DNA from: Saccostrea cucullata
Taxonomy: Eukaryota
NCBI RefSeq assembly: GCF_032062105.1
Contig: NW_026919274.1
Location: 1,054,001-1,118,000 of the forward strand
Direction: 5' to 3'
Length of the DNA: 64,000 nt
Positions within the stretch are counted from its first letter, which is position 1; each line of letters opens with the position of its first letter. The translations under genes were made by a program, and so were the position numbers. Shown in pieces: positions 2,258-49,475 of this stretch. A model generated the notes under the pieces. It was given only the letters and a program-made list of their open reading frames with translations, ran no database searches and was not told the origin of the DNA.

Positions 2258-3950
2258 CTCTTAGAGCATATTTTTATCGTTGTAAAAGTAATGACAGTGG
2301 TTGTCACTATACCAGCAAGAATCGCCAATACTATTCAAAAAATTAAAAAATAAATATTTATTTAAGCCGACTTTAAGTATACAACATATAACCCTTTATG
2401 TCTTTAATGAAGTTCTGCAACCGTTGATATTTTAAATTACTTAAAATATTCTATTTAAAATTTCTATCTGTTTTAATTGATGATTTAAACTTAAGAAACA
2501 ATGTAAGAAACAATTTTAGAAGAAACGTATTACCAAAATATTTGTTCTCTTTCAAAAAGTCAATAACGGTATCCTCTGAAATATAACCAAAATAAATTGA
2601 ATGTGTAATAAACACTTACGTATTTTCCTTAAGCATATACATCAGATCAAATAATTATGAATAAACTACAGCTTTTTTTAATAACTTAATATTGATGCAA
2701 ATAATAATAACATTGGCTTGAACACGTTTCCTTACGTACATAAATGTAAAATAAATATTCCTGTACTTATGCTTTCATTAATTTTCAGTATGTCTACTCT
2801 TATGTACATTAAATCCTAGGTGGACCTTAGTCATCTTTGGATATTGTTAGTAAGGCCATTCCAAGTTTTTTCTCTGTTTAGCGTCCACTCATCTTTCAAA
2901 AACCTACCTACCTATTCGCAAAAAAACACACAAGCCAAAACATAAAACACAGGCTTAAAAGTCATAAAAATGACGCCCTTCAAATGATTTGATCTAACTA
3001 AACTGCTTTAATAGAAGAAATTTCTATTCTTAAGCAAAAACAAGGGATTAAATACTTAAAATACACCTAATATATCTTACTGTACAGAATTATTTGGAGA
3101 AATTGACAAAATAAAAAAAATTTCGACTAAATTAATGAATTTCAGATTTTGTGTGTTTTTTCTAATATAGGGTGTCAAAAACCAAGGCGCACGCGGACGC
3201 TAAGCATAGAAAAAACTTGGATTGGCCTAACGTACTTTTCTAGACAAGTACATATACCTTCTATTATGCTTTCTGTTGATTGTGAATACTTCTGTGTTGT
3301 AGGATTGAGGTCTTTTCTACGATTGGCTTTACCCAACACAAAAACTATTCAGAAAAAAATAACTATTTATACTAGTAGTTAAGACTATGTTCAGAACACG
3401 AAAAACCAATATGAGATACGAATTTTGATTTTAAATGAATACTTTATTAAGTGAATATTGGTCGTTTTTATCTTACCATTCCAGCTAAGCTTGAATGTGA
3501 CATTGTAAGCAGACACTTGGACTTGATTATGACGTGTTTTCACGTGGTCACGTGTTATTGAGGAGCAGTAATTCTTAAGGGTTGTCCTTTGTTCAGTATG
3601 TATTTCTTTTAGCTATAAACATATGAAAATAAAGCTGAACGATAATCAAAATAACTACTGAATTATTCACTAGAAGTGACAAAACGCATGCACGCTAATA
3701 AGCAAGTGAGCAATCAAACCAAAAAAAAAAAAAAAGCAAATAAACACTGAGCAACAATTAATAAAATTTACCATGAGATAACTAGAACAGGTCTTAGAGT
3801 GCACAGAAACTCTTAGTGCTGTAACACGGAACCAGATGCCACGGTTTTCTGGTGCTTGGATTGTCCACGTACAAGTGTTCTCTTCCAATTCTCTCATTGC
3901 TATAATTCTCTTCTTGTAATCTATCTCCTTCTCACATGATGGCTTACACT
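2258..3950 (-). CDS. Gene A (partial): CUB-like domain single-pass membrane protein
   Basis: Phase-compatible GT-AG exons 3772-3950 (CKPSCEK..NTCTWTIQAPENRGIWFRVTALRV..CSSYLM), 3477-3612 (LKEIH..YCSS..VQVSAYNVTFKLSWN), 3258-3344, 2534-2575, and TM exon 2258-2330 (VLAILAGIVTTTVITFTTIKICSKR). CxWxIxAP and YC are CUB hallmarks. First and last exons were not located. Confidence 0.75.
2854..3227. mobile_element. PIF/Harbinger-type MITE in gene A intron
   Basis: ~35-bp imperfect TIRs (ggccattccaagtttttt..tttagcgtcc / ggacgctaagcatagaaaaaacttggattggcc) flanked by TAA on both sides. Confidence 0.65.
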
Positions 3951-4752
3951 CTGTGAAATTAATACAAGTTTAAGATGTTGAAAAATACAAAATTAGAAAT
4001 GTTTTGTCTAAAGAAAAATGTGAAGTCAGGGCAGTTTTATTATCTTAAAAGTCGCAAAAATGCCAAGAAAGATTGTTGGAGAATTAACTTTTTTACCCTC
4101 ATAAGAATGACCCATTTTCGTTTTTAATGGTGTTGTCTCGATCGTCTTTGTTATTCTCATTTCGAAATTTCAAATCATTAAGATTTTTTAAATTTCTTTT
4201 TAGCATTTGTATACTGTCCTATATGAAAGCAAACTGACAAAATCTGTGGTATCATTTATTTCGATTTAGTATCGAGAAAACATTTGAAATGAAAAAAAGA
4301 ATGTATTTTAATACACAGAATAGATAAATTATAGGTCTAAAGGTCGAGTTGACTGCTATTCAGAAACAATTTGTTGTAACCTTCATTGATATTTCCTACC
4401 CATTTTTTTAATGCTATGTAAAATACTCGAGGAAGGAATTTATAAATTGTTAAAGATTAAGATTTGCAATTATGAATGATTTTATACAAGGAATGAAGCG
4501 ATTTATAAAAAAAAGCGTAAACTGTCACAAGGTTTGTTATATCGTATAACATACGATAAACTTCATTCCGTGTAATTTAATTTCAGTGTAGACAATGAGA
4601 CAATTTTTCCTCCGGAAAAATGCCTAAAATTTAGCATATTTTAAAAGTAACGTCAAGCGGAGTAATACTTTCTTGACGTGGGCAAGTTATGTTATACAAA
4701 ATGGATTAAATCTTTAACCCAATCAAATGACGTGTTACAATGAAGAAATAAG

Positions 4753-13061: not shown

Positions 13062-16000
13062 TCATTTAGTTTGGTTTTTGTGTCCCATCCTCGATAAAAC
13101 GTTTGATACATCATCAGAATGAATAAGAAATAATGTACTGAGTGTTTCTATTTTACTGTTGGAAGTTTTTTCTGGACATGCATCCATCGACTGTTTAACG
13201 GAGTTCGTAGCTCTCTTATAACAAGCGTCCCCTGCTGCCTTTTCCTTGTGTATCTGTACCTCTGAGACCTTTGAAGGACATTGATTTGATGACCTCCCTG
13301 TAGATGGGCGAATCTGTTTTATATCAATTATAGAATGCTTGTTGTTTGTGTCTGAAAGTCCCTTTGATTCTCTATTTTGTGAAGATTCTGTGTTAAGGAT
13401 TGTTTTCTCATCCATAGTGCCATCCTTGGTCACTCCTTCTTTAAACAGATTTATCCTGTTCGATAATAACCCGTCCTTCACTATGATTTTTGTCTTCCGT
13501 GGATGGCGTTTGCGTTGTTCACTTTGGAGTGAGTTTGATGTTTTTTGATTACGAAAACCTTTCGTGGTGGACAAATTTGGTTGCATCAGTTTAGATAAAT
13601 GTGGTCTATGCTGTCTTCTCTTATTTCTCATCGACTGAATGCCAAATCGGTTGTTCCAATTCCGCTGAAACCAATCAGGTATGTACTTGAATGATATTCT
13701 GATTGGCTGAGCTCTATGTCTTCGTAGATACTCTGATCGCCCATATCTTATATACTCCAGACGGAATTTGTTCTGCCTGTAAAAGAAAATTCTTGGTCTG
13801 TTTAAAAGATATGAAAGAGAGATCAAAAAGTTTGTTTGGTTGAGGAATAGACTTTCCACCAAAAACTCTTCGGAAGAAGATACAAGGTTGACATACGATG
13901 TACATTATAAACTCTTTATTTTTATATACATTATAAACTCTTTATTTTTTGAAAGATTTAATTTTTTCCATAAAATTATTCGAACATATGTTTAAACTTA
14001 AGAAAATTTTTTATTAAGAATTAATTTTTACTACAGCTAGGACACTAGTGTAAATTAAGTATGTGTGCATCGAGCAAATCAAGTCATTTCTTCTGTTGTT
14101 ATTTCGTTTAGAAACGTTTCTCAATCCCCAAATGGTCGCTATGGTGAACAATTTTTTTTAAAGTTTACTGCACATGTAAAATTTTAGATTTACAAAGAAA
14201 TTTTAGACTTCTTGCACCTTATACCCGAAGATTGTCATTTAAATCAAATAAAAAAAGTGAGCACGTCTACACCTTTTTTTTAAATAGAGACAATTGTGAT
14301 TGGTAAGGGTTGATAGTATGTAATTTAGATAAACAATGTATATAGGGAATAAAAATATGATTTTGGTAAATATCTTTAGAATGAAATATCAACAGATGGC
14401 TGTTCAAGTCATTTACATGGAAATACGTACCTTTTCTTCCACTTCCTGTAGAATATACACACACATATAATGTTGAAAAACAGCAACATAAATATCCCGC
14501 AGAGGACCACAACGCCAACATCTGTCAAACAGTAAGGTCAAAATAGACTTTTAAAGATAGGGAAGATAAAAATAGACTGCCAAAGTGAAGAAGATAGATA
14601 GAATACATAATAAGTTAAATAGACTATAAAATCAGAAAAGTACAGATAGATTTTATAGTAAGGTCAAAAAAATAGGCAACAAACTAAGGAAGGTAAAACT
14701 ATTCTGCAAAATAAGGAAGGTACAGGTAGGCTTCAAAATAAGGAAGGTACAGATAGGAAACAAAATAAGGAAGGTACAGATAAGGGCTACATTTAAGAAA
14801 GATACAAATAGGCTATGAGATAAGGAAGGCACAGCTAAGCTACATTAAAAGAAAGGTACAGATAGCCTACACAATAAGAAGGATACAGATAGGCTATAAA
14901 ATAAGGAATGTACAGATATGCTACATTATAAGAAAGGCACAGATAGCCTACATTATAAGAAGGATACAGATAGGTTATAAAATAAGGAATGTACAGATAG
15001 TCTACATTAAAAGAAAGGTACAGATAGCCTACACAATAAAAAGGATACAGATAGGTTATAAACTAAGGAATGTACAGATAGCCTACATTATAAGAAAGGT
15101 AAAGATAGCCTATAGTATAAGAAGGATACAAATAGGCTATGAAATAAGGAAGGCACAGATAAACTTCATTATAAGAAAGGTATAGATAGCCTATAGTATA
15201 AAAAGGATACAGATAGGCTATAAAATAAGGAAGGCACAGATAGACTTCACTATAAGAATGGTACAGATAGCCTACATAATAAGAAGGATACAGATAGGCC
15301 ACAAAATAAGGAATGTACAGATAGGAAACAAAATAAGGAAGGTACAGATACTGGCTACATTTGAAAAGGGTACATATAGGCTATAACATAAGGAAGGCAC
15401 AGTTAGGCTACATTATAAGAAAGGTACAGATAGCCTATATTATAAAAAGGATACAGATAGGCTATAGAATAAGGAAGGCACAATTACTGGCTACATTATA
15501 AGGAGGTTACAGATAGACTAATAATAAGGGAGGTTCAGATAGGCTAATAAGCTGCAGAACAAAATAATGATGTATAAATATGCTATAAAATAAGATAAGG
15601 AACAAATATGCTACAAAAAGGAAGACATTTGCTAGAATAGGGAAGGTACTGATAGGCTATTAAATAAAAAGAATTTATAAACGGACTAGAGACAAAAAAA
15701 TTTTTTTAAAAATAGCTACAAAATAGAAAATGTATGAATAAACTTCCAACTAAAAATACACAAATAGACTATTAAGGAAGGTACACACAGGCTAAAAAAT
15801 AAGGAAGGTACAAAATCGTTAAAATTATACAAATAACCTAGATAATAGAGAAGATCAAAACAGGCTTATAAATATGTCATGCAGTTAGGGTTGAATGCCA
15901 ATATCTATATCTTTCTTGTTGGTTGGTCACATATACTATAAAAAATTATTATATTTAACTTTCTTTGATAAAATCTTCAGCATAAGAAATAAATCTCACC

Positions 16001-16108
16001 CACATCTTGTTCTTCACGATACTCAATTTCTGACTGGCCGGACATTATGATCGTGTTTCTATCTCTCTTTGTGACTAATACCACTTTAAATGTTTGTGAA
16101 GTGGAACA
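13062..16108 (-). CDS. Gene B: single-pass membrane protein, paralogue 1 of the trio (long basic/low-complexity tail)
   Basis: Exons 16000-16108 (in-frame ATG at 16045, MSGQSEIEYREEQDV), TM exon 14431-14521 (DVGVVVLCGIFMLLFFNIICVCIFYRKWKKR) and terminal exon 13062-13776 ending KIETLSTLFLIHSDDVSNVLSRMGHKNQTK*. About 283 aa from ATG 16045; further upstream exons are possible. Confidence 0.75.
14530..15860. repeat. 27-bp minisatellite with 81-bp higher-order structure (gene B intron)
   Basis: Unit ~ataagaaaggtacagatagcctacatt. The gataca variant recurs every 81 bp (14801, 14882, 14963, 15044, 15125, 15206, 15287). Confidence 0.85.
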
Positions 16109-16319: not shown

Positions 16320-16572
16320 TTTGTATGCCATTTAACGTCCACCTCTAGAATTTTTCATTCATATGCCAGTGGAAAGCTGCAAACTTTGTCCTATACTCGG
16401 ACCATTGAACAGAGTATTTTTTCGTACCAGCCCCTACTGCGACATGGACATCGATTTATATGGTCTCATCCGAAGAACCGGTCTCCACGTCCAATATTAG
16501 GATGTGAACACGCGTCGTAAAGATCAAATCCTTACCTCACAAAACTTTCTTGCCACAGCGTAACGCGGGCAA
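16320..16572 (-). mobile_element. SINE copy (same family as 1657-1954)
   Basis: Reverse-complement match across tail, core (ggtctcatccgaagaaccggtctcc) and head. Confidence 0.7.
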
Positions 16573-16754
16573 CTTCTTGTTTTGTAGTAGCTGTAACGGG
16601 AAAAATGTGCACAATGATATCAGAGACCAACAATTCTACCTATCATAAAGTATAATATTAGGAGATTAACTTTTTTCTTATGAACACATATTCAATGACT
16701 TTGATGAATAACAATATAACAATATTGCGCCTTTTATTGATTTTCTGTATGAGA

Positions 16755-24835: not shown

Positions 24836-27114
24836 TCATGGCTCACTAACAACTTTTACAGTTTTTAATTTTGAAATGGTGCGTAGAACTTCAGGGGTAT
24901 GTGTTTCAAATAACGTCGTCAGAGTTTTGAGATTGTCCCTCTTCTCCTTTCTGAGTGGTGGTACAAAGCTGTCAGAGAAATTGATGTCCGTGTACGTATT
25001 CCTGTCTTTGGATTCAATTGTCATGTAAGTATCAGATCGGCAGGAGGAGGACAGCGACATAGATTCTGTGACGTTAGAGTAGATGTCGTCTGTTGATCTT
25101 CTAGATATATTTTCTGGCATGTTGTTGTTGTACAGGTGTTGATTCGACTTTCTAGACTGCTCCAACACATTGTATGTACGTTTTCTTTCAATGCCACTTT
25201 GTCTGCGACGTATTTTTTGTCTATGTTATAATAAATAAACTTCGTTATCCCTTGATCATCACTTCAAGATTTTATTTATAATACACGTATAATATATTAT
25301 CAACTATGTTATACTTTTCTTTAAAAAAAGTCGGTATGGTCAATTAGGAGAAATTGTCAGTTTTATATTGAAATAAAGGTTTCGATCGCTACACATTTTG
25401 TATATAAAATATTTACTTTAAATAGATAATGTAAAGATATAGTAATACATAAACAATTAATTGAATACTTTTTCTTCCAAGCGCGGTAGAAGAACAATGT
25501 GAAGACAAAATTAGCAATCACCAGCACGGATACACAAAGCGTTGTTATCATTCCAATACCTTTAAGAAAGTAAATAAAGTGATACATGTATTTATTTTCG
25601 CAGGGTCAAATTTTGGAGGTTTTGGAGTTATGGTTCGTGGGGATTTGATTTTTAAATTTGTGGAGGTTTTAAAAGATAACAAATATAACTTCGTGGAGGA
25701 TATATTTTCTAAGGTGTCATTAAAACACAAAATCATGATATTTTAACACCTCAAAAAGTGATTTTACAGTGTACACAGTTTATTTTGATTTTATTCAATT
25801 AGATGGTGTTGTATATATTTGCTAGGTGACTCACCAAATGTAGATGATGATGCAAATTCAACAGTGCCAACATCAAGATGGTTATATCTTCTTTTGTCAT
25901 CATGCGTGTAAAACAGGTTCTCTAAAGAAGTTTGCTCTGAAAAAAAAAATAAATTTCCTAATTATAGTAGTATGATTATTGGCAATTTGCTATACGAATG
26001 ACTCTTTACGATCCTCAGTATCAAATGAAATTTCCGTATCTTTTTATAGATTCTTTGTAATGCTGCAACTTAATGTTTTTATTAAAAGGAAATTAGTAAT
26101 TAATTCCATACATGTTTGTCACAAGTGAATAATACAAATAAATGAGTATACACATACGAATTTTGTCGAGTTGTCTTTAATACTTTCAAGGTCTTATCCA
26201 TTGTTTGAGTATTTCATTGCTGAGATACGTACCAAATACAGCGACTGTGGATGGAGTTTTTGTGGAACCTGTTGTATTTGGTTTTGCTTCCGAAGACTTC
26301 AAATTTTGCTCTCCTATATATGTAGAGTCATTTATTTGAAAACGAAAAACAAGTACAATTTTACGTAATACTTAAATTCATATTTGTTACAAATTAATGG
26401 TTTAAAAAGTAAAAAGGGTCCCTAATAATAATACATGTCTTTTTTCAGAAAAAGCGTGATAACAGTTAAGATTACAAGCTATCTATACGTATGTATATAA
26501 ACAATAATCAAAGTATGTATTAAACATCCACAACGCACAACCAAGGCGATAGACAATACAATTTCAGTATAAATATTATTTGTCATACCGCAGTTATGTA
26601 TTTCACAAGGCTTTCTATCGAAGAGTTTTGCGTCTGTGCAGCTCGTCAAACAGTCCCTTGCTCTGTACAAATCATCCTCATAACAGCAGCTCCATGAAGA
26701 CCAAGGAGAGTATCCATCATCTTTCTCAGCATGCAATCCTAAACGACGATTAAAATATTTATCATTCATTAACCAAATTTTACTATTTATTTAGTGTATG
26801 TTTCAAAAGCCGTTTTAATTTAACAGATTTGTAAAATACGAGGGTGCCAAGTTCGCTAAAATTAAAATCGCTAAAAATTAATAAAATCGCTAAAATTACA
26901 TCTCATCTATTTCTTTTACAAAATTTTACGAGTTGCTCTGTGTATCTTTCAAAATCCGTTTTTAAATGTAATAGTGCCGGAATAAAACTGGAAACAGTAA
27001 TGCTAAATTGTAACCATGAAACTTACCATTCCAGAGCAACATCATTAAAAGCAATGAATGCAAGGTATGGATCTCCGTGTGAAAGAAATCTATATATGTC
27101 CAAAAGACCAGCAT
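24836..27114 (-). CDS. Gene C: type I membrane protein with signal peptide, TSP1-like domain, S/T-rich stalk, TM and tyrosine-motif tail; paralogue 2
   Basis: Six phase-compatible exons: 27027-27114 (MLVFW..SLLLMMLLWN), 26589-26738 (YSPWSSWSCC..YRARDC..C..C..C), 26233-26313, 25835-25936, TM 25469-25559 (GIGMITTLCVSVLVIANFVFTLFFYRAWKKK) and 24836-25220. Total 897 nt = 298 aa plus stop. Confidence 0.85.
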
Positions 27115-31756: not shown

Positions 31757-34700
31757 TCATCGGACACCTGTTTCAATGGCTTTCAATCTGGAAACTGTGC
31801 GATTAACATCATTCGAGTGCAATGAAAATAGTGTCGTTAGGGTTTTCAATCTGTCTCTTTTAATGGCTCTGAGCGGTGGCACACTTTCTTTAGAAATTTC
31901 CGTTTCCTTTGCTTTCGTTACAGATTGGATTGTTGCGTATCTATCGGACTGAAAGCTTATACGTGAATCCCGGACGTCGGAGTAAACATGCCTAGTCATG
32001 CGCTCGAGTGCACTGTATGAATTATTGGTGTTCATTTCAATCGTGCTTTGTCTTCGACGCACTTCCTGTCTGTACAGAAAGAAATAGTTGATTTAATATT
32101 GGCTTTGCCTAAATGCTTATATGTACTGGACAAAAGCAAATAAACGTTGGTTTTAATTATAAATGTCTAACTCCAATGTAGGAAATGCCTACAAAAATTA
32201 CATTTATCTCTCTTCATGTAAAAGTTTTGAAATCATTAAAACTTATTAATATGACAGTAATACCCACACTTAAAAGTGTTTACATCTTCATTTAAGCTAC
32301 TTGAGTAATGAAGAACCATGATATAAATTATCAAATAATCCACATAAAAGTATATTCCTTACAAAAGAACTTTTGGACAATTTGAAATCACAGGATTTTA
32401 CCAAAATCAACAGCTTTTAAAAAAACTTTTTAAACGACTTTTCAACTTAATACACAAACATATGCATTCTCCATGATAAATTAAAGTCCAATTTTTTTGA
32501 TATCATTGACAGCTGCCTTTTCAATAAAAATGAAACTCGTAATTTTACTTACCTTGTCATTGGTCATTTGCATAATTATTTTGTTAAAAACATTCTGATT
32601 GTACATACAATTACTCTGAAGTTGACATAAAAAAAGATGATTGAGTTTCTGATTGACAGTACATGTATCTATGTTGTTTTCGGAGACCAGGTCTGTTGGA
32701 ATTGCCCTGGGTACCAATTGCGCCCCGTTATAAGCAGACCTATTTTTGTATTCATATGAAGCAGAATTTGTTGAAAATCTTATCCATGAAATAGGGGATG
32801 GGGTAAAAGCATTACTATTGCATTTTTTTTTAAAAGGAACAATTTAGCTGTATGTAAGTATTGCTTTACAGTCAGCTTCACCCTCCTCCTCTAAAAATAT
32901 AAATTATAACAATCTTTGTCTGGTGTATATTTCTTCACTTCACCCTCTCTGGCCTACGTTTCACCTTTGGGTAGAGGATGGACAGTCTGGCTCAAACTCA
33001 TGAATAGAGAGTACCATTGAATATAAAAGAGATTTTGAACAATTTCTAGTTCAATGGTCAAGGTAAGAAAACAAACGTCTTTTCATGAGAAAACATTATT
33101 CAGATATCGAGTATTTACTAGTATTCTCTCCCATTGACTTTATATGGCTCAAACGATATCCATAAAGTACCAAAGGCTTGAGGGTGTTCAGAGACAGATA
33201 ATCATAGATATTGATGTCAAAACACGTTTCTGTGTAAAGTCTTTGTACAAAGCACACTTTGACTCCTTATGGCTCAGTTTGGCTCACATTTCACTCAAAG
33301 AGTATTCCCATGAATAAGGGTCTGACCAGAGTTTTAAATAATTTTTAAGGATGAAAGACCTAAGTCAAAATATTTTCTTTTGTTTTTAAACACTTCTTAG
33401 TCTTGGCGTAACACAAATCAAACCTATTGTCTGACACCTGAAAACCAGTGATCAGTGATTGTCACAGGCTGTGAGTGCCATATGCAGACTGGGCGCGACT
33501 AGTTTCCCGAAATGGGGACCTTTCATTATGTATTATTTAGAGTACGAAATTCCTACTGTATCGGAGATACAGGACTGGACTTGAGGCGAGAGCGACAGCT
33601 CGAACCGCGCCCCGCCCTGTATCTCCGAAACAATAGGAAACGAGTATTCTAAATGACTTGTGACATGACTTTTCTTATGACCTCACTAATTTATATGTGT
33701 ATTTGGGTCATTCTATAGCCAATCAGATGATTTTTCAGAAAGTGAAATTTCGCACCCCATTTTTATCAGTCGCAACTGAAATGCCGAGTAAGGTGGAGGC
33801 GAAGGTATCTATAAATTTAAATAATTTTAAAAATGGGAGGTGATATGCCCCGGTAAATGTATAATGTTTTTTTTCCAGAAAATTAATTTATATTTGACTG
33901 CGTAGGTTTTTTCCTCTGTTCCTCTTGCAAAGGAAAAATGTGTAAAACATTTTGATACATAAGAAACATATGAAAATGAAGCAAAAAAAGGTTTAGGGGA
34001 TTATATTCTGAGAGAAATATCCTACAATACCATCCACCAGTCGTCATATTACAATATTACTGGCTCTAATCTGAAATGCACAGATGAAAAAAGGGAGCAT
34101 ATATTACCTTCGTGTTTGAAAAAAATGTAAGCGTAACCAAGGCAAGTCAAGTGCTGAATAGCCCCCTTTGATTTTTCGTTTTGGCCCTCTTAAATTAGAT
34201 CTATATTTGCCAAACTTGGATATCCTTTATAATTGTTCATAATCAATATATAACGATCACACATAGTGTCAGAGCTGATTATGATTCTACCCCCACAAAA
34301 TACGATTTTCCTTTTTTTGGTCAAAGAAAATCGCGAACTGTGAAATGTGAACTGCTTCACTCCCTCCTTTCTTTTCCCACCATAGGTAATTATACTTTGT
34401 AAAATTATATTCTAAATTTACCTCAATTTTTCATCAAATACATGTAATAACATAATAATAATGTTATGCCTTTTGATTGATTCTCGTGTCTGTCTCATTT
34501 AAGATACGGATACAGCTTTCAGTCATCGCTAAAAATAAAATGTTTTCTATCGAAGTTATTGTACAGTTTCTGCTCATTTGCATGAGAAACGCCCTCGAAA
34601 AAGTGTTCCGTATCGCAGTTATTGTACGGTTGACATCAAAGGAAAACTCGCCGGGTCATGTCACAAATATTTTTGTAAATGTCACCTATTCAAATTTGTA

Positions 34701-37700
34701 ATATCACTAATTCAAATTAAATAGGTGATATCGCCTATTCAAATAGGTGATATCCCTTATTCGAATAAGTGATATCACCCATGAAGTCCGAACAAGTGAT
34801 ATCACCTAATAATTTCCAATGAATGATATCACCAAAAATGGCCTCAAACGTATCCTGGGGGAAAAGGAATCTTATTTTCTTCTAATGAAGAGTAAAGTCC
34901 TCCTTTATGGAGAAAAAATAGAAAAATGAATAGAAATCCTTTGAATGACGTTTTGATTGTTTAACCTTTTGGCATGTGTGTTTTGCAAAAATAATTAAGG
35001 TTAACTTTAAAAGAGAAAAATAATCTTGGAATAGTCTGTTGTGAAAGCTTCATAACACAGTGTACTTTTAGTAACCATGACCCAGTGGGCTAGAGTATTG
35101 CCACAAGAGCAAACAAAGTTTTACATACGAACGTGTATGAATCTTCTCAAGAACCACTGGGAAAAAGCAGTGGAAAATAATTTGGAAGTTTGATACAAAG
35201 TTAAGACGAAAAACCTGTTCTTACAAAATATTGCTCTTCCTACCGTTTTAATGAGATTCTAGTAAGACAGCACAAATAGGCTATACTAGGCTATATATAA
35301 TCCTTTTTATCTGTTTTTGATTTCCTAAAACCGTGTTGCCATAATAGCTGGAAATAGACACAATCAACACTCGTTATCTCGAATTACTTGAGACCAATAA
35401 CAAAAGCTTCGAGATATCCGATGATTAGATATTACCTCAAAATCATATATAGGTTGAGTTTTTAGAACCAGATTATTATTTTTTTCTAAGGGGGGGGAGC
35501 AGTTTTTGACTTTTGCTGTGGCCTTCAACTCGACCTTCAGATATATCGACGACGTATATTGTCAATTAACAATGGTAATTTCCATTCCTACGTCGATACG
35601 ATATATCCAGGAGAGCTTGAGATAAAAGATACCACAGAGTCTGACACATCTGTTTCATACTTGGATATTTTACTTGAAAAAGACGTTAATGGTAACCTAA
35701 CAACCAAGTTATATGATAAACGTGATGACTTTAACTTTTCTATCGTCAACTTCCCTTACTTATGCAGCAATATACCTTCATCACCTGTATACGGAGTGTA
35801 TATATCTCAGTTGATTCGATACGCAAGAGCATGCTCTACGTACGAACAACTTCTAAAACGGGGTAAATTATTGAAAAGCAAGTTCATGAAACAAGAATAT
35901 CAGCAGTCTCTTTTAAAGTCATCATTTCGCAAGTTCTATGGTCGATACAATGACCTTGTCAGCAAATACAATTTATCATTGAGTCAAATGCTGACTGACG
36001 TTTTTCATACCAATTGTTCGTCCATTATTCATACACTGAATTGACGACGGATTTTTCTGTTATTTCACGATCATGACAATGAGCACACGGCGAGTGTGAC
36101 CGGTCAGCAAGGGATGCTCACTCCTCCATGGCACCTGCTCCCACCTCTGATGTTTCGGATGTCCGTGTTTGCTCTGCTCCTATTTTGTATTGTTTTATGG
36201 ACTTTGATATTGAATACTGTTTGTTATCTCCATATCCATCCCAATGGTGAATATGAAAATTCCGAAACCAAATACACACATCTCTTATCCTTTCCCAAAA
36301 ATGAATAAGCTACATTAAAATGTTGGCGGAGTTCTTGGAACCAGAATTTTTTGGTTAAAACAATGAGAAAACATTTTTCGACCCCCATTTGACATCCCCG
36401 GGAAAAAATGATAATTCAGATATCTTTTTTGCTTATGACAAACCAATCAACTTCCAAATAAATAATTATAAGGTTACTGCATAAAATGTTAGAGGAGCTG
36501 GGAACCAACCCTTAGTAGAAAAACATCATTATTGACCCCCTGGATGAAATTAGAAATTCAAATTCTGAAATCTTATTTATATATCCATGACATCACCAAT
36601 CATCTTTCAAAAGATTATTATGTTATTGCGCAAAATGTAGGAGGAGCTCTGGAAACCAGACTTTTGTATTTAAAAAAACTAATTTTTAATATACCCGGTT
36701 TGCCCTCGGTGTGAAAATAAAAATTCGAAAGAAAACTTACTGCACATCTACAAGATGTTTTTTTTATTTTTATTTATTTATTTATTTATATTTTTTGTTA
36801 TTATTTGACCTTTTTATTGTTTGTGTAGGTCGCATCGAAACGTATTGAAGCAATTAAAAAGTAGTAAAAGATTCAATAAAACACAAATCAAAACTGAAAA
36901 TACTGAGTATCAAGAATAAATAATTGTCAAATTTAATGAGAGAAATTTTCGGAATCATGCTCAAAAATATCACTTTATTTCATATGCTAGACTAATTTAC
37001 ATTACGGCACTAAAATAAAAAGGCATGCACTTAATTCAAAAACTCAATATCAGATAAAAGAATGAACTTCAGCTCCTATTTTATACTTTTAACTTTTTTT
37101 AGTCTTAGTTTTCATCTTTCATTTATAGTGCAGAACTTTGGAAAAAAACTTTAAGTACTGAGACTGCATTGTTAAGGTGAATCATAAATGATTGTAAACT
37201 ACAAGTGTTTTGTCCAAATGATTATTTACCTCTGATGTTTTGGAGGTCCGTGTTTGCTATGCTCCTGATTTGAATTATTTGAATGGACTTTTGAGTATGA
37301 ATACTGTATGTTATCTCTAATATATTTCATTTTGGTTACGCTTATTTTCAAGTTATGTGAAATATTTACCTTTTCTTCCAAGCGCGGTAGAAGAAGAAAG
37401 TAAAGATAAGGTTAACCATTACAAGTGCAGACAGACATATAGTTGTTATCAACCCGGCACCTGAAAAAAAGTTACAGATATGTGTTATTATATTACATAA
37501 CAGGAACATTTATACAGAATTGTTGTTTATTTCATAAAAATAAATAATCATCCTTATTTTTTTTTTTTTTACATTTTTTATTAGTTATGGTAAGAATAGA
37601 AATGATCAACTTCATACAAAATTTAATTGAAAGAATGAAAAAAATTTCATTACAAGGCTTTGAAGCTCAGTATCTTGATTTTTATAAATTTAAAATACAT

Positions 37701-37808
37701 AAGTAAAATACTTACCAAATTCAGTGGGTACAATAAAGTCTTTGCTACCCATATCACGTTCATTATTTTGTTTAGTTTTATCCTCTGTCTCATTAGACAT
37801 GTTCACAG
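31757..37808 (-). CDS. Gene D: single-pass membrane protein with short ectodomain and tyrosine-motif tail; paralogue 3
   Basis: Exons 37716-37808 (ATG at 37800, MSNETEDK..PTEF), TM 37370-37460 (GAGLITTICLSALVMVNLIFTFFFYRAWKKR) and terminal 31757-32069 (QEVRRRQS..DRLKTLTTLFSLHSNDVNRTVSRLKAIETGVR*). 162 aa from ATG 37800; upstream exons are uncertain. Confidence 0.8.
32330..36240 (+). mobile_element. Penelope-like (Naiad-type) RT fragment split by ~2.7 kb of nested insertions
   Basis: 32698-32790 reads GIALGTNCAPL*ADLFLYSYEAEFVENL. Translation resumes at ~35513 with AVAFNSTFRYIDDVLSINN..YLDI..LYDKRDDFNF..YGVYISQLIRYARAC, ending at 36044 with no C-terminal GIY-YIG. The 3' tail runs 36085-36230. 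Confidence 0.75.
33535..33655. repeat. Long hairpin within the nested insertion
   Basis: atttagagtac..ttcctactgtatcggagatacagg / cctgtatctccgaaacaataggaa..gtattctaaat. Confidence 0.6.
36240..36760. repeat. Degenerate ~160-bp satellite-like units (HINE-type)
   Basis: Motif atgt(a/t)ggaggag..ggaacca recurs at ~36320, 36486 and 36635. Confidence 0.5.
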
Positions 37809-42912: not shown

Positions 42913-45900
42913 CTACCGGGTACCACTGAAAACCATATTTACACAAAGAATCAATAATTATATATATATATTATTAAACCTTGATGCAAAAAATTACTTT
43001 TCCTAAGGACAAGATAGAAATAATTTAGTTTCTAGTTTGCCTTTATCACGTTGTTAAAAAATAAATCTGAGATTGCTGTTAAACCTCATGACAAACTTAG
43101 GAGAGAAGCCGTCATCTTTGTGGGTGTAGGTTTCGAAAGAACACAATACGACTTACTTGTCATCCGTGTAGTCACTGTGAGACCAAACATTCCACTCGTA
43201 CTTTCCATTTATCTTCTCTGGCTCTTTCACTGTAACATACAGAGGATTTAAGGTAAATTTTTTAAATACTTTGAAAAAAAGACGAGAGCTTTCAGTAAAA
43301 TTTCTTTTTTGACCATGTTTGCCCGCTACCTTTCTGTCTTGGTGAAGTTTTCTTTTTGCAGCTGTAAAGAAATTCAAGTATTAAGGGCCAAAATCTAAAA
43401 ATAATGTATACATATGTATATTATGCATTTCAGGAAATGTTACTTACCAAACTCTGGACAACAAACCAGGATGACGAAAACACTTGTACAAGAAGTAAAT
43501 CAACAGAACCACCATTAAAGCTGCCAGAAGTACGGCGGGTATGAACCAGGCCAGGTTCTCTGGGTTGTCAAAGAATCCGCCCTTGGAGTTACTTGATCCT
43601 CCGGAACTAGGTGGCGCAGTCGTAGTGGTGGTGGTAGTGGTTGTTGTAGAAGTGGTGGTAGTCGGGTCTATAGGGGGCAGATTTAATCAATGATGGCATA
43701 TAATAAAATCACCTACATAGATATTGACATGTGATGATTTTCTTTTCTACTTTGAATTAACACTGGGTGAAAGTAAAAAGAATTTCAAAACGATTTTTTA
43801 AACTTCGGAGTTCTATGCATTTTATAATACTTATGCAAAAGAACTATATGCGGTATATTGAATATACATGTATTTGCCCCCACAAAAGTAAAATTTTGAA
43901 AACTTCCTGAAATGTGCTGAATTCAATTAATTGTATGAAAAATATAAATTAACAGAACATATTATAGTTCCAAAGTAGTTTATTCACAATTTTTGTTTTT
44001 ATGACGTCACAAACTAGTCCGATTTTATATCCTTTTTTAGAAAGAGGACAAAATGGACAAAATTTCAACAATTTTAGCTTTAAAATTTATAGAACGCAAG
44101 TTTGTTCAGGAACAATATTTATATATTTCATTGATATTATCATTCTACACATAATATCGAAATATTGAGCATGAACACACATGCGCTCGGTGACATTAAC
44201 TCAGAATATCGACTAAATATGTACATTTTCCCATAGAATTCATAAAAACCTAAAATTTACGTCATGTTTGTGACGTCATATCATACATATGACACCATTA
44301 CTTATGAAAATATTTAGTGCTTTGAAGTCAGCATATACCCCTCTGTTTTAGAACATAATTAAATATTTCTCCATCAAAGTCTGATTTGGGGGGCAAATAT
44401 TAGTTATTACCGAATAAAGTTCTTTACAAAAATCAAATGTATTCTAAGTAAAAAAATAACAGAATTGCATTCTTTTCATAGAAAAATACCTGTGATTACA
44501 ATAGTAACTGGAGCTGTATCTTGTAATCCATTTGCGTTAGCTGCAGATAAAGTTAGGTCATATTTGGTGCCCACAGGTACATTGCACAAATCTTGAGCAA
44601 CGTGAATTGTACCATCATTCCCTACCAAAAACCCCGCCCCTGAAGTGAGAGTAAAGGTCACGTCCTTGTGCTCCTGTTTAATATCCTTGTCAGTGGCAGT
44701 TACTTGGCCTGCCGAGGACCCGACTGATGAGCATTGTGAAACGAAGAAGGAGTAGCTCCCTTTGTCTAGAACAGGTGCGTTATCATTTATCTCATTTATT
44801 GTGATGGAGAGTTGAGTCGATATAGTATGTCCGCCTTTGTCCGTTGCCGTGACTGTGCATGTCACTACTTCCTGTTCCTTCCCAACAGAATCAAGGTCGT
44901 ATTCTACAGACTGGGTTATAGAACCTTTTTAAAATAAAAAATCAAAAGGAATGATTTCAATATTGTTGCTGAATAAAGAACCTCAATGTTTATATATGAA
45001 TAAAATTTTAGCAGTTTCTAACTTTCTACACGAAATTGACAATATGCACCTGTATTTGGATCCATACGAAATTTTCCTTGGTTGGTGCCACAGTCCATGG
45101 TAAAAGTTTGAACATCATTGAAATCAGGATCTATAACTTGCGTACCCGTAAAGGGATTGGTCAACACGTTTCCTGACTGAAGTATATTATTTCATTCAAA
45201 AGTATTTTAAACAAAGTTTTGCAACTCAAGCTACATATACTAGTCTGTAGACACAACCACACTGTAAAAATCTTTAAATGGTTTAATGTTTTTATTCTTA
45301 AATCTTTTTTACGGAGTTATATGACTAAAACATTAAATTGTCTGTAATTACACGGATAAAAAGATCCTAAAGTCTTCTGTAAGAAGATTCATTTCGTCAT
45401 TAATTCTTATAAAGAGCTCTATAAAATAAGATTTACCTTTCCTTCTCCTGTTTCTATGGCATATACCGATTTAACAAACCCTGTCTGTTGTTCATTTACA
45501 TCAGTAACAAGTATCGTCATTGTTTGGGGGATAGAACTCTCCCTGCCGTCGTTTGCAGTTACTGTGACGTCATACGTTAGTTGATTAAGTGTTCGAAGAC
45601 TTTCATAGTCAATATTGTCTTTTACAGAAATCACACCAGCTACAAAATGAATACAATATGTTTTACATATCTCATTGTTATGATGATGGTGGTTAAATGC
45701 ATATATTTATTTTATGAACCAGACACACCTTCATCGCCATGAGTATAAAATGAGATAGAAGTGAGTTTGATCTCTTCCTTATAGAATCAAATTCGCAAAA
45801 AATACTAAGGTAAGTATTTTTTTGGAGGGAAAATATTACGTCACTATTATAGAATATTTTTAGTTGATCATATTGAAATACTTATAAGGTTCTTGTATTT

Positions 45901-48900
45901 CATGAGGAGAATGATATTACATATTTATATCTACTTAAAAAATTTATTTCATATTATATTTTGGTGCAAAAAATAGGACAAATAATATCTATATAAATCA
46001 AAATAATTTTTCCAATTTTTTCCAAGTTCTGTTGCTGGTAGTATAGATATGACAAAAAGAGAATTGAGAGTCCTGGATACTGGAAATTTAACACATCTTT
46101 AATTGAAAATGAAACTTTCATCAGTGATATGAAAACTTTTCTCAATGAGCTTAAGTTCGATAGAGAAAACCCAACAAAATCTTGGGAAGACTCAAAGAGA
46201 AATGTAAAGGACTTCTGTATAATCTTCTCCAAGAATCTATCAAAATCTTACAAAAGTAAAATAAACTTTATTCAAGAAGAATTAAATAAAATAGAAGACC
46301 TGCCCTACGAAAAAATTGATATGAATAGAAAAAGAAAATTGGAAAACCAATGAACAGAATTTATTAACAAAAAAGCAAAAGGTGCTCAAGTTAGATCACG
46401 GGCAAACTGGATTGAAAATGGAGAGAAAAACACTTCATATTTCTTAACCTTAGAAAAGAAAAGACAGATATCAAATATAATAAAATCTTTAAATACTGAA
46501 CACGGTACTGTTTTTGATGAAGATGAAATATTGCAATCAACATGTAATTTTTTTGAAAAATTATACACTTCAGAAAATGTAACTGATAATAAGATAGAGG
46601 AATATCTCAATGATTTACAATTAGAATATACTATAAATGATAAGGAAAGAATAGAATTAGATGAATTTCCTTCAATATCCGATTGTAAAGAAGCAGTGTT
46701 TAAAATGAAGAAAAATAAATCCCCAGGACTTGATGGACTACCTTGTGAATTTTATCAAACATTCTGGGAAAATATTTAAGATTTCTATTATCTGACTCTC
46801 AAGGAGATTTTTGTAAAATACCAAATGGCATATACACAAAGGTTATCTTTAATAACTCTTTTATTTAAAAAAGGTGACTCTAAAAATCTGACAAATTATA
46901 GACCTATTAGTCTAACAAATACTGATTATAAAATTATAGCCTTTATCTTAGCTAACAAACTACAAAAAATACTGAATAATGCAATACATATAAATCAATC
47001 AGCATATATAAAAGGGCGCAATATAGCCTTAAATGCAAGATTAATTGTTGATATTTTTGAATACTGTGAAGAAAATAACTTGGATTCAGTATTGTTATTC
47101 CTTGATTTCCAAAAGGCTTTTGACTCTGTAGAATGGAATTTTATGTTGAAAGTTCTTAAAAAAATAATTTTGGAGAAAATTTCTTGAAATGGATCACCAT
47201 TTTATATGATAAGCCTATATTTAGAATAAAAAATAATGGGTGGATATCTAAAACATGTGATATGCACAGAGGTATAAGACAAGGATGTCCTATTTCTGCT
47301 ATTTTATTCCTATTTGTAGTAGAAGTATTAGCCATTGCTATTAGATCAAATCCTAACATAAAGGGTTTTCAAAAACCTGGAATGACTGATATTATAAAGA
47401 TAATACAACATGCAGATGACTAGACACTTCCTTTAAAAGATAAGAAGTCCCTTAAACATTCTTTAGAGGTTATAGAAAAATTCAGTAAAGTATCTGGTTT
47501 GAAACTAAACATGTCTAAAACAGAATGTCTCTTAACAGGTCAATTGAAAAATTTGTATCGACAAATAGAAAATGTTGAAGTTAATAATTCCTGTATAAAA
47601 GCTCTAGGGATATTCATAGGACATGATAAGGAAATATATTACAATAAAAACTGGACAAAAATTGTAGACGACCTAGAAAAACTTTTTGAGTCTTGGAAAA
47701 AAGAAAATTAACAATTCTGGGCAAAGTCTGTGTAATTAATAGTCTAGCAATATCAAAAATTATATATATTGGGTCAATTTTAAACTTTTCCAAAGGAAAA
47801 TACAGTTAAGAAAATACAAAGTCTAATTTTTAATTTTATATGGAATAAAAAAGACAGAATAAAGCGAAACACTCAGATTGGAAGTGTTCAAGAAGGAGGA
47901 ATAGGTATTGTTGATGTACTTTTAAAACTAAAATCCATAAAAGTATCATGGATTAAAAACATACTAAGTAAAACAAACTCCTTATTCCTATTTATTGATA
48001 GTTTGTGTAAAGAGAGAAATTTTGATTTTGAATATCTATGTAAAACAAACGTTATTGATACAAAAGACTATCAAATTATGGAAAACTTTCCCTTGTTTTA
48101 CAAAGAAATGCTAGTATTTTTTGATGAATGTAAAAGAAACAAAAGAGAACTGAATTTGAATGCTTTATTAAAGGAACCACTGTGGTGTAATAATAAAATG
48201 AAGCATAAAAACAAGCCAATATTTTTTTCAAATTGGCTGAAAAGCGGATTTAAATATATTGGTGATATTGTAGACAAAAATGGTATGCAACCCATAGAAT
48301 GGTTTTATGATAAACTTGTATGTAAGAGAAATTGGATTTGTGAATATATGATAATGAAAAATGTGGTTTTGAAAGCTTTTGTAGAATATGAATTTACAAA
48401 TATACAGTATGAAAATATCAAATATGAAATTAATTCATATGATTTATTATACCATCATCAAGTAGCAGTGTTTGATATTACTTCAAAATTGATTTATAAA
48501 ATTCTGTGTCTTGATAAATTTAAACCTCCCTTACATCAGTATTATTATGGAAAATTGTTTGAAATTCCAAAAACTGCTTGGAAATCTATATATGAACAAA
48601 AAATATTAGCAATTGCAGATAGAGGCATATCAGACTTCAATTACAGATTATTAAATAACTTATTATGTAATAGAGAAATGTTGAAGAAATGGAAAATTGT
48701 TGAAAATGAAATGTGTGTTTTTTGTAAAGATGTAAAAGAAAACAATGAACATCTTATTCTAAAATGTCAAAATGTTTCTCATATATGGGATGTTGTTCAG
48801 CAAGTTTTGAAATTTGATATAACATGGAAAAATATTGTTATTGGATTTTATTATGAAAAAAATGAAAAGATATTATTTTTGAATAGCATAATATCCCTGA

Positions 48901-49439
48901 TTGCTTGTAAAATTTACAAATACAAAATGTACTGTAGACTTGAAAACAAAGAAGAAAAGCCTCAAGAAATATGTTATCATATGAAGAGTATATTGAATAT
49001 TTTTACTGAAGTATATAATAAAATTAACCATATGAAATATTATAATGTTATAAAATGTATTAAAGAGAAACTATAATTTATAAACCCATTGTAGAATAAG
49101 CCTGTAGTTCTACGATCTTATCTGGGAGACAATAAATAGACTGTGTTTGAGCTGGAGGTGAGGTCTCCCAGATATATAAGGGTACCTATATACAAGTATA
49201 CATATGATAATCAGCTGTATTTTTTATGACTTTTTTTTCATTAAATTTTGGGATAAAACCTTTACAATCATACATAAGATAATCAGCTGTATTTGTTAAT
49301 GACTTTTCTTCATTTTGATATTTTGTGATAAATTATTCCACATGATTTTACATGACAAATAGAAAGAATGAAATTGTTCAAGTTATAAAATCAAATGCAC
49401 TGTAACATGTATATGATGTTTTGTTTTTCTAAATAAAAT

Positions 49440-49475
<36 letters not shown>

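Follow-up and report, generated by a model that had tools for sequence, protein, structure and literature searches.

Three neighbouring genes of the oyster Saccostrea cucullata, which we call B, C and D, end in a real, constrained and apparently undescribed motif of predicted helical shape, so far confined to one oyster-restricted family of adaptor-like membrane proteins. The genes lie in a stretch of 64,000 nucleotides that was analysed as a whole and is here called the window. As read from their sequences, the family members would have an ectodomain that is mostly short, an invariant Asn in the membrane helix, paired YxxI/L/V motifs and, near the C-terminus, the motif itself. Three islands of conservation were observed in the family: the membrane helix, the tyrosine motifs and the C-terminal motif. 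The earlier note on this DNA had described the motif but not its context, given by the tyrosine pairs and the invariant membrane Asn, both of which it overlooked.

Three tandem genes and their shared motif

The three genes correspond to uncharacterised Saccostrea cucullata loci, B to P0004 (283 aa), C to P0001 (236 aa, with the allele P0002) and D to P0005 (162 aa), and our exon models reproduce P0004 and P0005 exactly. The RefSeq model P0001 begins inside an intron; C spans 24836-27114 (-), and the window carries the signal-peptide and Cys-rich exons seen in the allele P0002 and in S. echinata P0003, with consistent phases. The features of the three genes are as follows.

13062..13776, minus strand: last coding exon of B, with a basic tail (45 K+R and 18 D+E in 208 aa) and no YxxI/L/V, then the motif and the stop (exon model; RNA coverage)
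13086..13151, minus strand: C-terminal motif of B, residues 255-276 of 283 (exact translation, profile score; helix predicted by AlphaFold)
13716..13760, minus strand: juxtamembrane block of the B lineage (EY...GRSEYL..H), retained in the orthologue P0011; the other aligned lineages do not show it
14431..14521, minus strand: membrane-helix exon of B (N-x-x-x-V, Cys-x-Cys, ending FYRKWKK), spliced to the last exon (exon model, RNA)
16000..16045, minus strand: first coding exon of B in the RefSeq model, with an ectodomain of ~15 aa and no signal peptide (the loose end of an RNA contig maps here)
24836..25220, minus strand: last exon of C (exon model)
24866..24931, minus strand: motif of C, with a Pro in its middle (exact translation)
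24983..25081, minus strand: tyrosine cluster of C, YSNV and then YMTI-x7-YTDI (sequence)
25469..25559, minus strand: membrane-helix exon of C, N-x-x-x-T (exon model)
25835..26313, minus strand: stalk exons of C (~26313-26233 and 25936-25835), Ser/Thr-rich, with one sequon (borders from splice context)
26589..26738, minus strand: six-cysteine exon of C, with WSxWS and RxR (sequence; no Pfam match)
27027..27114, minus strand: first exon of C, hydrophobic, a probable signal peptide (in the allele P0002 and in S. echinata P0003, missing from model P0001)
31757..32069, minus strand: last exon of D (covered by an RNA-type contig whose match ends at the 5' border)
31784..31849, minus strand: motif of D (exact translation)
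31928..32017, minus strand: tyrosine cluster of D, YSAL-x7-YSDV-x11-YATI (sequence)
37370..37460, minus strand: membrane-helix exon of D, N-x-x-x-T (exon model)
37716..37800, minus strand: first coding exon of D, with an ectodomain of ~30 aa and a sequon at residue 3 (exon model)

The motif peptides of B, C and D translate exactly from the minus strand at 13151-13086, 24931-24866 and 31849-31784, and each starts 27-29 residues ahead of the stop of its last exon. For the chance controls we used a profile of 16 family motifs from which B, its orthologue P0011 and two degenerate rows had been left out. The tail of B scored 19.4 bits against this profile and the best of 5,000 shuffles of that tail reached 7.6 (HMMER gave scores for 2,635 of them); against a profile of D and the C allele alone, the corresponding values were 16.2 and 6.7. 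When the window and three further stretches were scanned with a profile, only the motif copies of B, C and D came up. Over 66 nt of the motif region (taken one codon off the motif itself, in the same frame) there are 30 differences between B and D, which still keep 11 of 22 residues, and 8 of these 11 use a different codon, which indicates that the protein and not the DNA is what has been conserved.

Expression is supported for B and D. In B, one RNA-type contig and two raw reads run across the splice from the membrane exon into the last exon, and another contig spans the motif; the depth is low (22 and 30 reads), most reads are less than 95% alike, and X1 and X2 were taken to be RNA by guess only. 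In D, one such contig covers the last exon as far as its border. A further exon may lie upstream of the first modelled exon of B, where a 55-nt stretch at 16536-16590 (-) has good acceptor and donor sites. An intron of B also holds an imperfect tandem repeat (14650-15500, period ~81 nt) with a strong strand skew.

B, C and D lie on the minus strand as tandem paralogues. In each, a 91-nt exon for the membrane helix, which ends in FYRxWKK and has identical splice phases in all three, precedes a single last exon that encodes the whole tail. The tails of C and D align at 40% identity (E 1.6e-20). The middle of the B tail (209 aa), compared with C and D, gave alignments that 75 and 435 of 500 shuffles scored as high as, and against the relatives outside the B lineage it stayed within the shuffle range in seven of eight cases (75-484 of 500 as high; the eighth, 5 of 500); it does align to P0011, where 0 of 500 shuffles scored as high. 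These results indicate that the motif is common by descent and that only the middle of B has diverged. The earlier note was right that B, C and D all carry the motif, and we find that it scores far above shuffles. Its description of the tails as otherwise unalignable applies to the middle of B but not to C and D, and its view of a motif common to unrelated tails gives way to tandem paralogy, with a common membrane-helix exon and common splice phases.

We searched the same genome with six last-exon or whole-protein queries. The credible matches were B, C, D and the copies on contig C10795, a lower bound in searches of this kind; two of the six queries recovered B by its C-terminal part alone (E 2.9 and 0.17). 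Contig C10795 (L002, L003, L005-L007) carries C, D and the cadherin region at 77-99% identity and is probably the other haplotype. The weak matches L009 and L010 proved to be unrelated reading frames, and a weak membrane-exon match on C20215 had no significant motif-profile match within ~10 kb on either side.

Other genes of the region were also annotated. A neighbouring gene at 2258-3969 (-) gave a weak CUB match (E 0.041) and has a membrane exon at 2330-2258. Its probable last exon is L018:8917-9417 (-), just left of the window, by a putative link; this exon is rich in YxN (YENI, YVNL), motifs that we take to be of the Grb2 type. The profile scan did not find the C-terminal motif in this gene. 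The surroundings suggest a neighbourhood of tyrosine-motif receptors. Further along lie a multi-exon membrane gene with cadherin repeats at 43156-57000 (-) (Cadherin E 4.7e-9), with pieces of a LINE-type reverse transcriptase element (RVT_1, zf-RVT) inside it at ~46000-49100 (+), and exons of a protein disulphide isomerase-like gene at 61787-63757 (+) (Thioredoxin E 1.8e-22).

Constraint and predicted shape of the motif

Across 18 rows, after two degenerate ones had been dropped, the consensus reads K-Phi-K-T-L-T-T-L-F-x-Phi-H-S-x-D-V-x-x-T-Phi-S-x-L. In this set T0, L1, F5 and V12 are invariant (18 of 18), and H/N8, S9, D11 and T15 are also kept. Because motif-containing profiles were used to gather the rows, and alleles and orthologues are among them, the family counts are not independent. 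In every pair compared, the motif is better conserved than the tail preceding it: 64% against 20% identity for B and P0011, 100% against 73% for D and its S. echinata orthologue, 82% against 62% for the C allele and its S. echinata orthologue, and 68% against 23% for D and M. gigas P0009. Moreover, the codon changes between the window and C10795, pooled for C and D, are 7 synonymous and 1 non-synonymous in the motif and 10 and 15 in the middle of the tail (Fisher p = 0.039), in a test that is post hoc and assumes contig C10795 to be an allele. Conservation of specific residues, polar ones included, is what a protein interface would be expected to show. Of 17 full-length sequences, 16 carry the motif. 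Only the M. gigas paralogue lineage LOC105341380 (P0017/P0069) departs from this: its motif is degenerate and its tyrosine pair retained, so that the motif is dispensable for some members.

AlphaFold predicted a helix at residues 9-38 of the 41-aa end of B, with a core pLDDT of 82-92. In D the predicted helix covers the motif (residues 132-160, pLDDT 55-76) and most of the tail is unstructured. The hydrophobic moment of the motif (0.38-0.50) and a conservation periodicity peaking at 90-100 degrees are consistent with an amphipathic helix; the motif is Ser/Thr-rich, with a net charge between -2 and +2. C has a Pro at motif position 10 in both Saccostrea species, and this sits badly with the continuous helix of the AlphaFold models. 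Its S/T-P-E-V points to a kink at the H-S step, without counterpart in those models, that we presume to be a helix cap. A complex prediction with two copies of the last 39 residues of D, in which the alignment was not used, gave 0.08 (mark 0.32), a score that speaks neither for nor against pairing.

Searches for a known counterpart gave the following. Scanned against Pfam, the window exons and 19 relatives returned nothing above a curated cut-off. Two motif profiles searched against PDB sequences gave best E values of 0.46 and 0.31, the matches, to a bacterial helix-turn-helix regulator and to a methyltransferase, being due to chance. A Foldseek query with the modelled 41-aa end of B gave 0 matches at E up to 10, a single short helix being a weak query, and the ESM Atlas, queried with the last exon of D, gave no usable match. 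WH2, PIP-box, NES, MIM1, UIM, GBA, talin-binding and dileucine motifs were also weighed; all but the last we set aside, as key residues or the compartment would not fit. The paxillin LD motif, given as LDxLLxxL with an invariant Asp in PMC5818605, is absent, as the residue after L1 is Thr in 16 of 18 rows and Ser in 2 of 18. By eye the motif also recalls a CUE domain, with L-x-x-L/M-F and a Ser/Thr/Asp cap four residues on. We rejected this candidate: there is no third helix, Pro follows the Phe in 10 of 10 CUE matches of the same genome and in 0 of 18 motifs, and hhalign gave profile-profile probabilities of 1.5% (local) and 0.2% (global).

Taken together, these data agree with the earlier note that the motif is constrained and that it is probably helical (on the AlphaFold and hydrophobic-moment predictions). 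It has no match among Pfam families or solved structures; the motif is also present in orthologues, from which its absence had been named as a refutation. That it acts as a 'binding module', as was also claimed, is something we infer.

Membrane helix, tyrosine motifs and extent of the family

Searching 1.84 billion representatives with a profile returned 19 matches at E <= 0.001, of which P0020 (E 6.5e-4), without the membrane Asn and the motif, was dropped as a chance match; a word-indexed search with a 12-sequence profile returned 20. P0016 first appeared to be a member lacking the motif, but P0138, a newer model of the same locus, carries it. All members with a species name come from true oysters (Saccostrea, Ostrea, Magallana/Crassostrea). 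Three Pacific oyster loci of the family carry near-consecutive numbers, which suggests that the gene cluster is shared. The motif was not found outside the family in a profile search where a match by the motif alone (~20 bits) would be too weak to pass the E <= 0.001 threshold. In open-access main texts we found no description of the family loci or of stand-alone ITAM-like or TRAP-like adaptors in molluscs.

The membrane helix contains the Asn in 17 of 17 sequences, as NxxxT in 15 and as NxxxV in the other two, B and its orthologue, which lack the Thr and also the tyrosine pair. Ahead of the helix most relatives have an ectodomain of 11-41 aa. It measures ~17 aa in B and ~30 aa in D, both without a signal peptide, and is not short in C, where the stretch runs to 144-147 aa in P0002 and P0003. 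The six-cysteine exon of C looks TSP1-like by eye, although Pfam gave no TSP_1 match for P0002, P0003 or the exon despite the visible WSxWS, RxR and six Cys. Of 17 members, 10 (P0005, P0006, P0007, P0009, P0010, P0012, P0017, P0090, P0092, P0093) have an N-glycosylation sequon among their first 7 residues, which fits an extracellular N-terminus, each case by itself being weak (shuffle P 0.14-0.72).

Pairs of YxxI/L/V motifs at a distance of 6-14 residues were seen in 15 of the 19 sequences (shuffle P for each sequence 0.011-0.055), with a spacing that varies from 8 to 14 in the best-kept pair, and 17 of 19 sequences have 2-4 YxxPhi motifs. B keeps the C-terminal motif with no YxxI/L/V at all, and its orthologue P0011, whose best match in the genome of the window is B, has one YxxPhi. 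Several of the tyrosines in the family are preceded by acidic and I/V residues, as is typical of kinase sites. The x7 pair of C is lost in S. echinata. The strict ITAM pattern, D/ExxYxxL/I-x(6-12)-YxxL/I as quoted in PMC6994640, is found in 8 of 20 family sequences and in none of B, C and D: C has YxxI-x7-YxxI without the acid, and D fits only if Val is allowed.

Candidate functions and known counterparts

The family would resemble TRAPs and DAP12-type modules in its working and is not a member of either by homology. TRAPs such as SCIMP, LIME1, LAT, PAG and GAPT, whose function we take as described in PMC7655920, share with it a short ectodomain, one membrane helix and a non-catalytic tail with several YxxPhi motifs. 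They show no sequence homology to it. Their juxtamembrane palmitoylation Cys pair is absent in C and D; B has a Cys-x-Cys late inside its helix, of which P0011 keeps only one Cys. C differs further, having a signal peptide and a Cys-rich ectodomain. To our knowledge, neither a C-terminal helix motif nor a membrane Asn is a TRAP feature. The ESM Atlas language model gave SCIMP (0.90), LIME1, opalin, GAPT and poxvirus A36R as look-alikes of P0009 (0.87-0.90), a lead only; the Atlas flagged its top family as probably wrong, with 4 of the 10 best matches agreeing. The Pfam families of SCIMP, LIME1 and GAPT were not among the best 25 of 45 matched families for 19 members, and no match listed had E <1e-4.

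DAP12, CD3 and FcR-gamma are, like the family, small type I/III chains with a polar membrane residue, a Thr one turn below it and paired tyrosine motifs. Modules of the DAP12/CD3 type form a disulphide dimer through the ectodomain, whereas B and D have no Cys there and only 2 of 15 members without a C-type domain have one. Unlike DAP12, the family has the strict ITAM in a minority of its sequences, and DxxxT is replaced by NxxxT, with no acidic residue in any of the 17 helices. Because Asn stands in place of Asp and D-to-N changes compromise TCR-CD3 assembly, according to PMC13107469, charge pairing with a receptor Lys is not expected. Another counterpart is the oyster ITAM receptor CgIgR, a membrane protein whose tyrosine pair recruits CgSyk (PMC6994640); it has five Ig domains, whereas the family has none and B and D have almost no ectodomain. 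Binding of oyster Syk to an ITAM-bearing receptor comes from the same source, and Syk-ITAM binding is noted again in PMC13344425.

Our leading reading, in which we place roughly even confidence, is that the motif is a phosphorylation-independent docking helix carried by a family of tyrosine-based transmembrane adaptors and would work, by analogy, like P3 of DCC. P3 is a heptad-patterned helix that ends a disordered tail and binds the FAT domain of FAK and the FERM domain of myosin X (PMC5818605). P3 of DCC and neogenin shares with the motif an amphipathic, heptad-patterned helix, ~20 residues long, that closes a disordered receptor tail near a tyrosine site; it differs in that the PDB profile search found no sequence match and that the F, H and S-x-D-V of the motif have no stated counterpart, and the likeness is an analogy only. 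Hydrophobic and polar residues alike are conserved exactly along about six turns, a pattern best explained by a helix that becomes ordered as it binds a protein groove. Since the motif is kept in B, which lacks the tyrosines, and the tyrosines are kept in P0017, which lacks the motif, the two are separable modules.

Under this docking reading the N-terminus would lie outside the cell, and the chain would associate through its membrane Asn (NxxxT), whether with another copy of itself, with a paralogue or with a receptor. The paired YxxI/L/V would be substrates of Src-type kinases, and a tandem-SH2 protein such as Syk or SHP2 may then be recruited. The predicted amphipathic helix, one face of which carries the hydrophobic positions 1, 4/5, 12, 16 and 19, would fold as it enters a groove on a kinase or scaffold, in a helical-bundle or FERM-type domain, like DCC P3 with FAK and myosin X, and the docked partner would be held beside the tyrosines. 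B, having the helix but no tyrosine pair, would compete for the same partner or cluster it instead of signalling itself.

The heptad pattern would also suit a helix that forms pairs, either between identical motifs or between those of paralogues (B-C, B-D or C-D), and so, together with the membrane Asn, clusters the tails. The conserved positions 1, 5, 8, 12, 15 and 19 follow 4-3 spacing and put His/Asn at a core position, Asn at heptad cores being typical of parallel dimers, and the clustered genes have all three retained the motif. We consider such oligomerisation unlikely, given a motif only about three heptads long, the Pro in the middle of the C motif in both Saccostrea species, and conserved Thr/Ser flanks that differ from the charged e/g pairs of zippers.

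Lipid-packing-sensing helices are amphipathic, Ser/Thr-rich and near neutral, as the motif is, so that the tail might instead fold back onto the inner leaflet to shield or position its tyrosines. Such helices usually keep a pattern and not exact residues, and with four invariant positions and the kept His, Ser, Asp and Thr we regard lipid binding as improbable. A sorting or turnover signal appears still a poor candidate: T-x-x-x-L-F would act as a phospho-regulated, dileucine-like signal and YxxI/L/V as signals for AP complexes, serving trafficking and not signalling. T0, L4 and F5 are near invariant at dileucine-type spacing, and YxxPhi is also a mu-adaptin signal; but a dileucine needs ~6 residues, which leaves the conservation at positions 8-19 unexplained, and several tyrosines sit in the kinase-site-like context described above. 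Finally, recent tandem duplication or gene conversion might have left the motif behind without any constraint on it, and every copy found in this genome does sit in one cluster and its probable allele. Such an origin is very hard to credit when B and D differ as they do at the nucleotide level, mostly by synonymous codons at common residues, the motif persists over four oyster genus labels while its flanks decay, and dN/dS well below 1 on its codons is already indicated.

Carried further, the docking reading would make the cluster an oyster immunoreceptor-like kit, with a receptor-like C, a stubby ITAM-like adaptor D and a decoy B without a tyrosine pair, which would assemble through NxxxT as a charge-free counterpart of the DxxxT of DAP12 and have in common a novel type of helical docking motif by which the kinase is pre-loaded. 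We offer this kit as speculation and doubt that it is correct as a whole.

The motif and the family are apparently undescribed, but of a known kind, and oyster Syk signalling downstream of ITAM-bearing receptors is already established (PMC6994640). Should the partner be a common FAT or FERM domain, the motif would be one more lineage-specific docking helix, mainly of specialist interest. If the docking reading holds, a new short helical motif would be added that is directly testable as a 25-residue peptide, and the family would supply farmed oyster species with stand-alone adaptors whose design is convergent with that of vertebrate immune adaptors.
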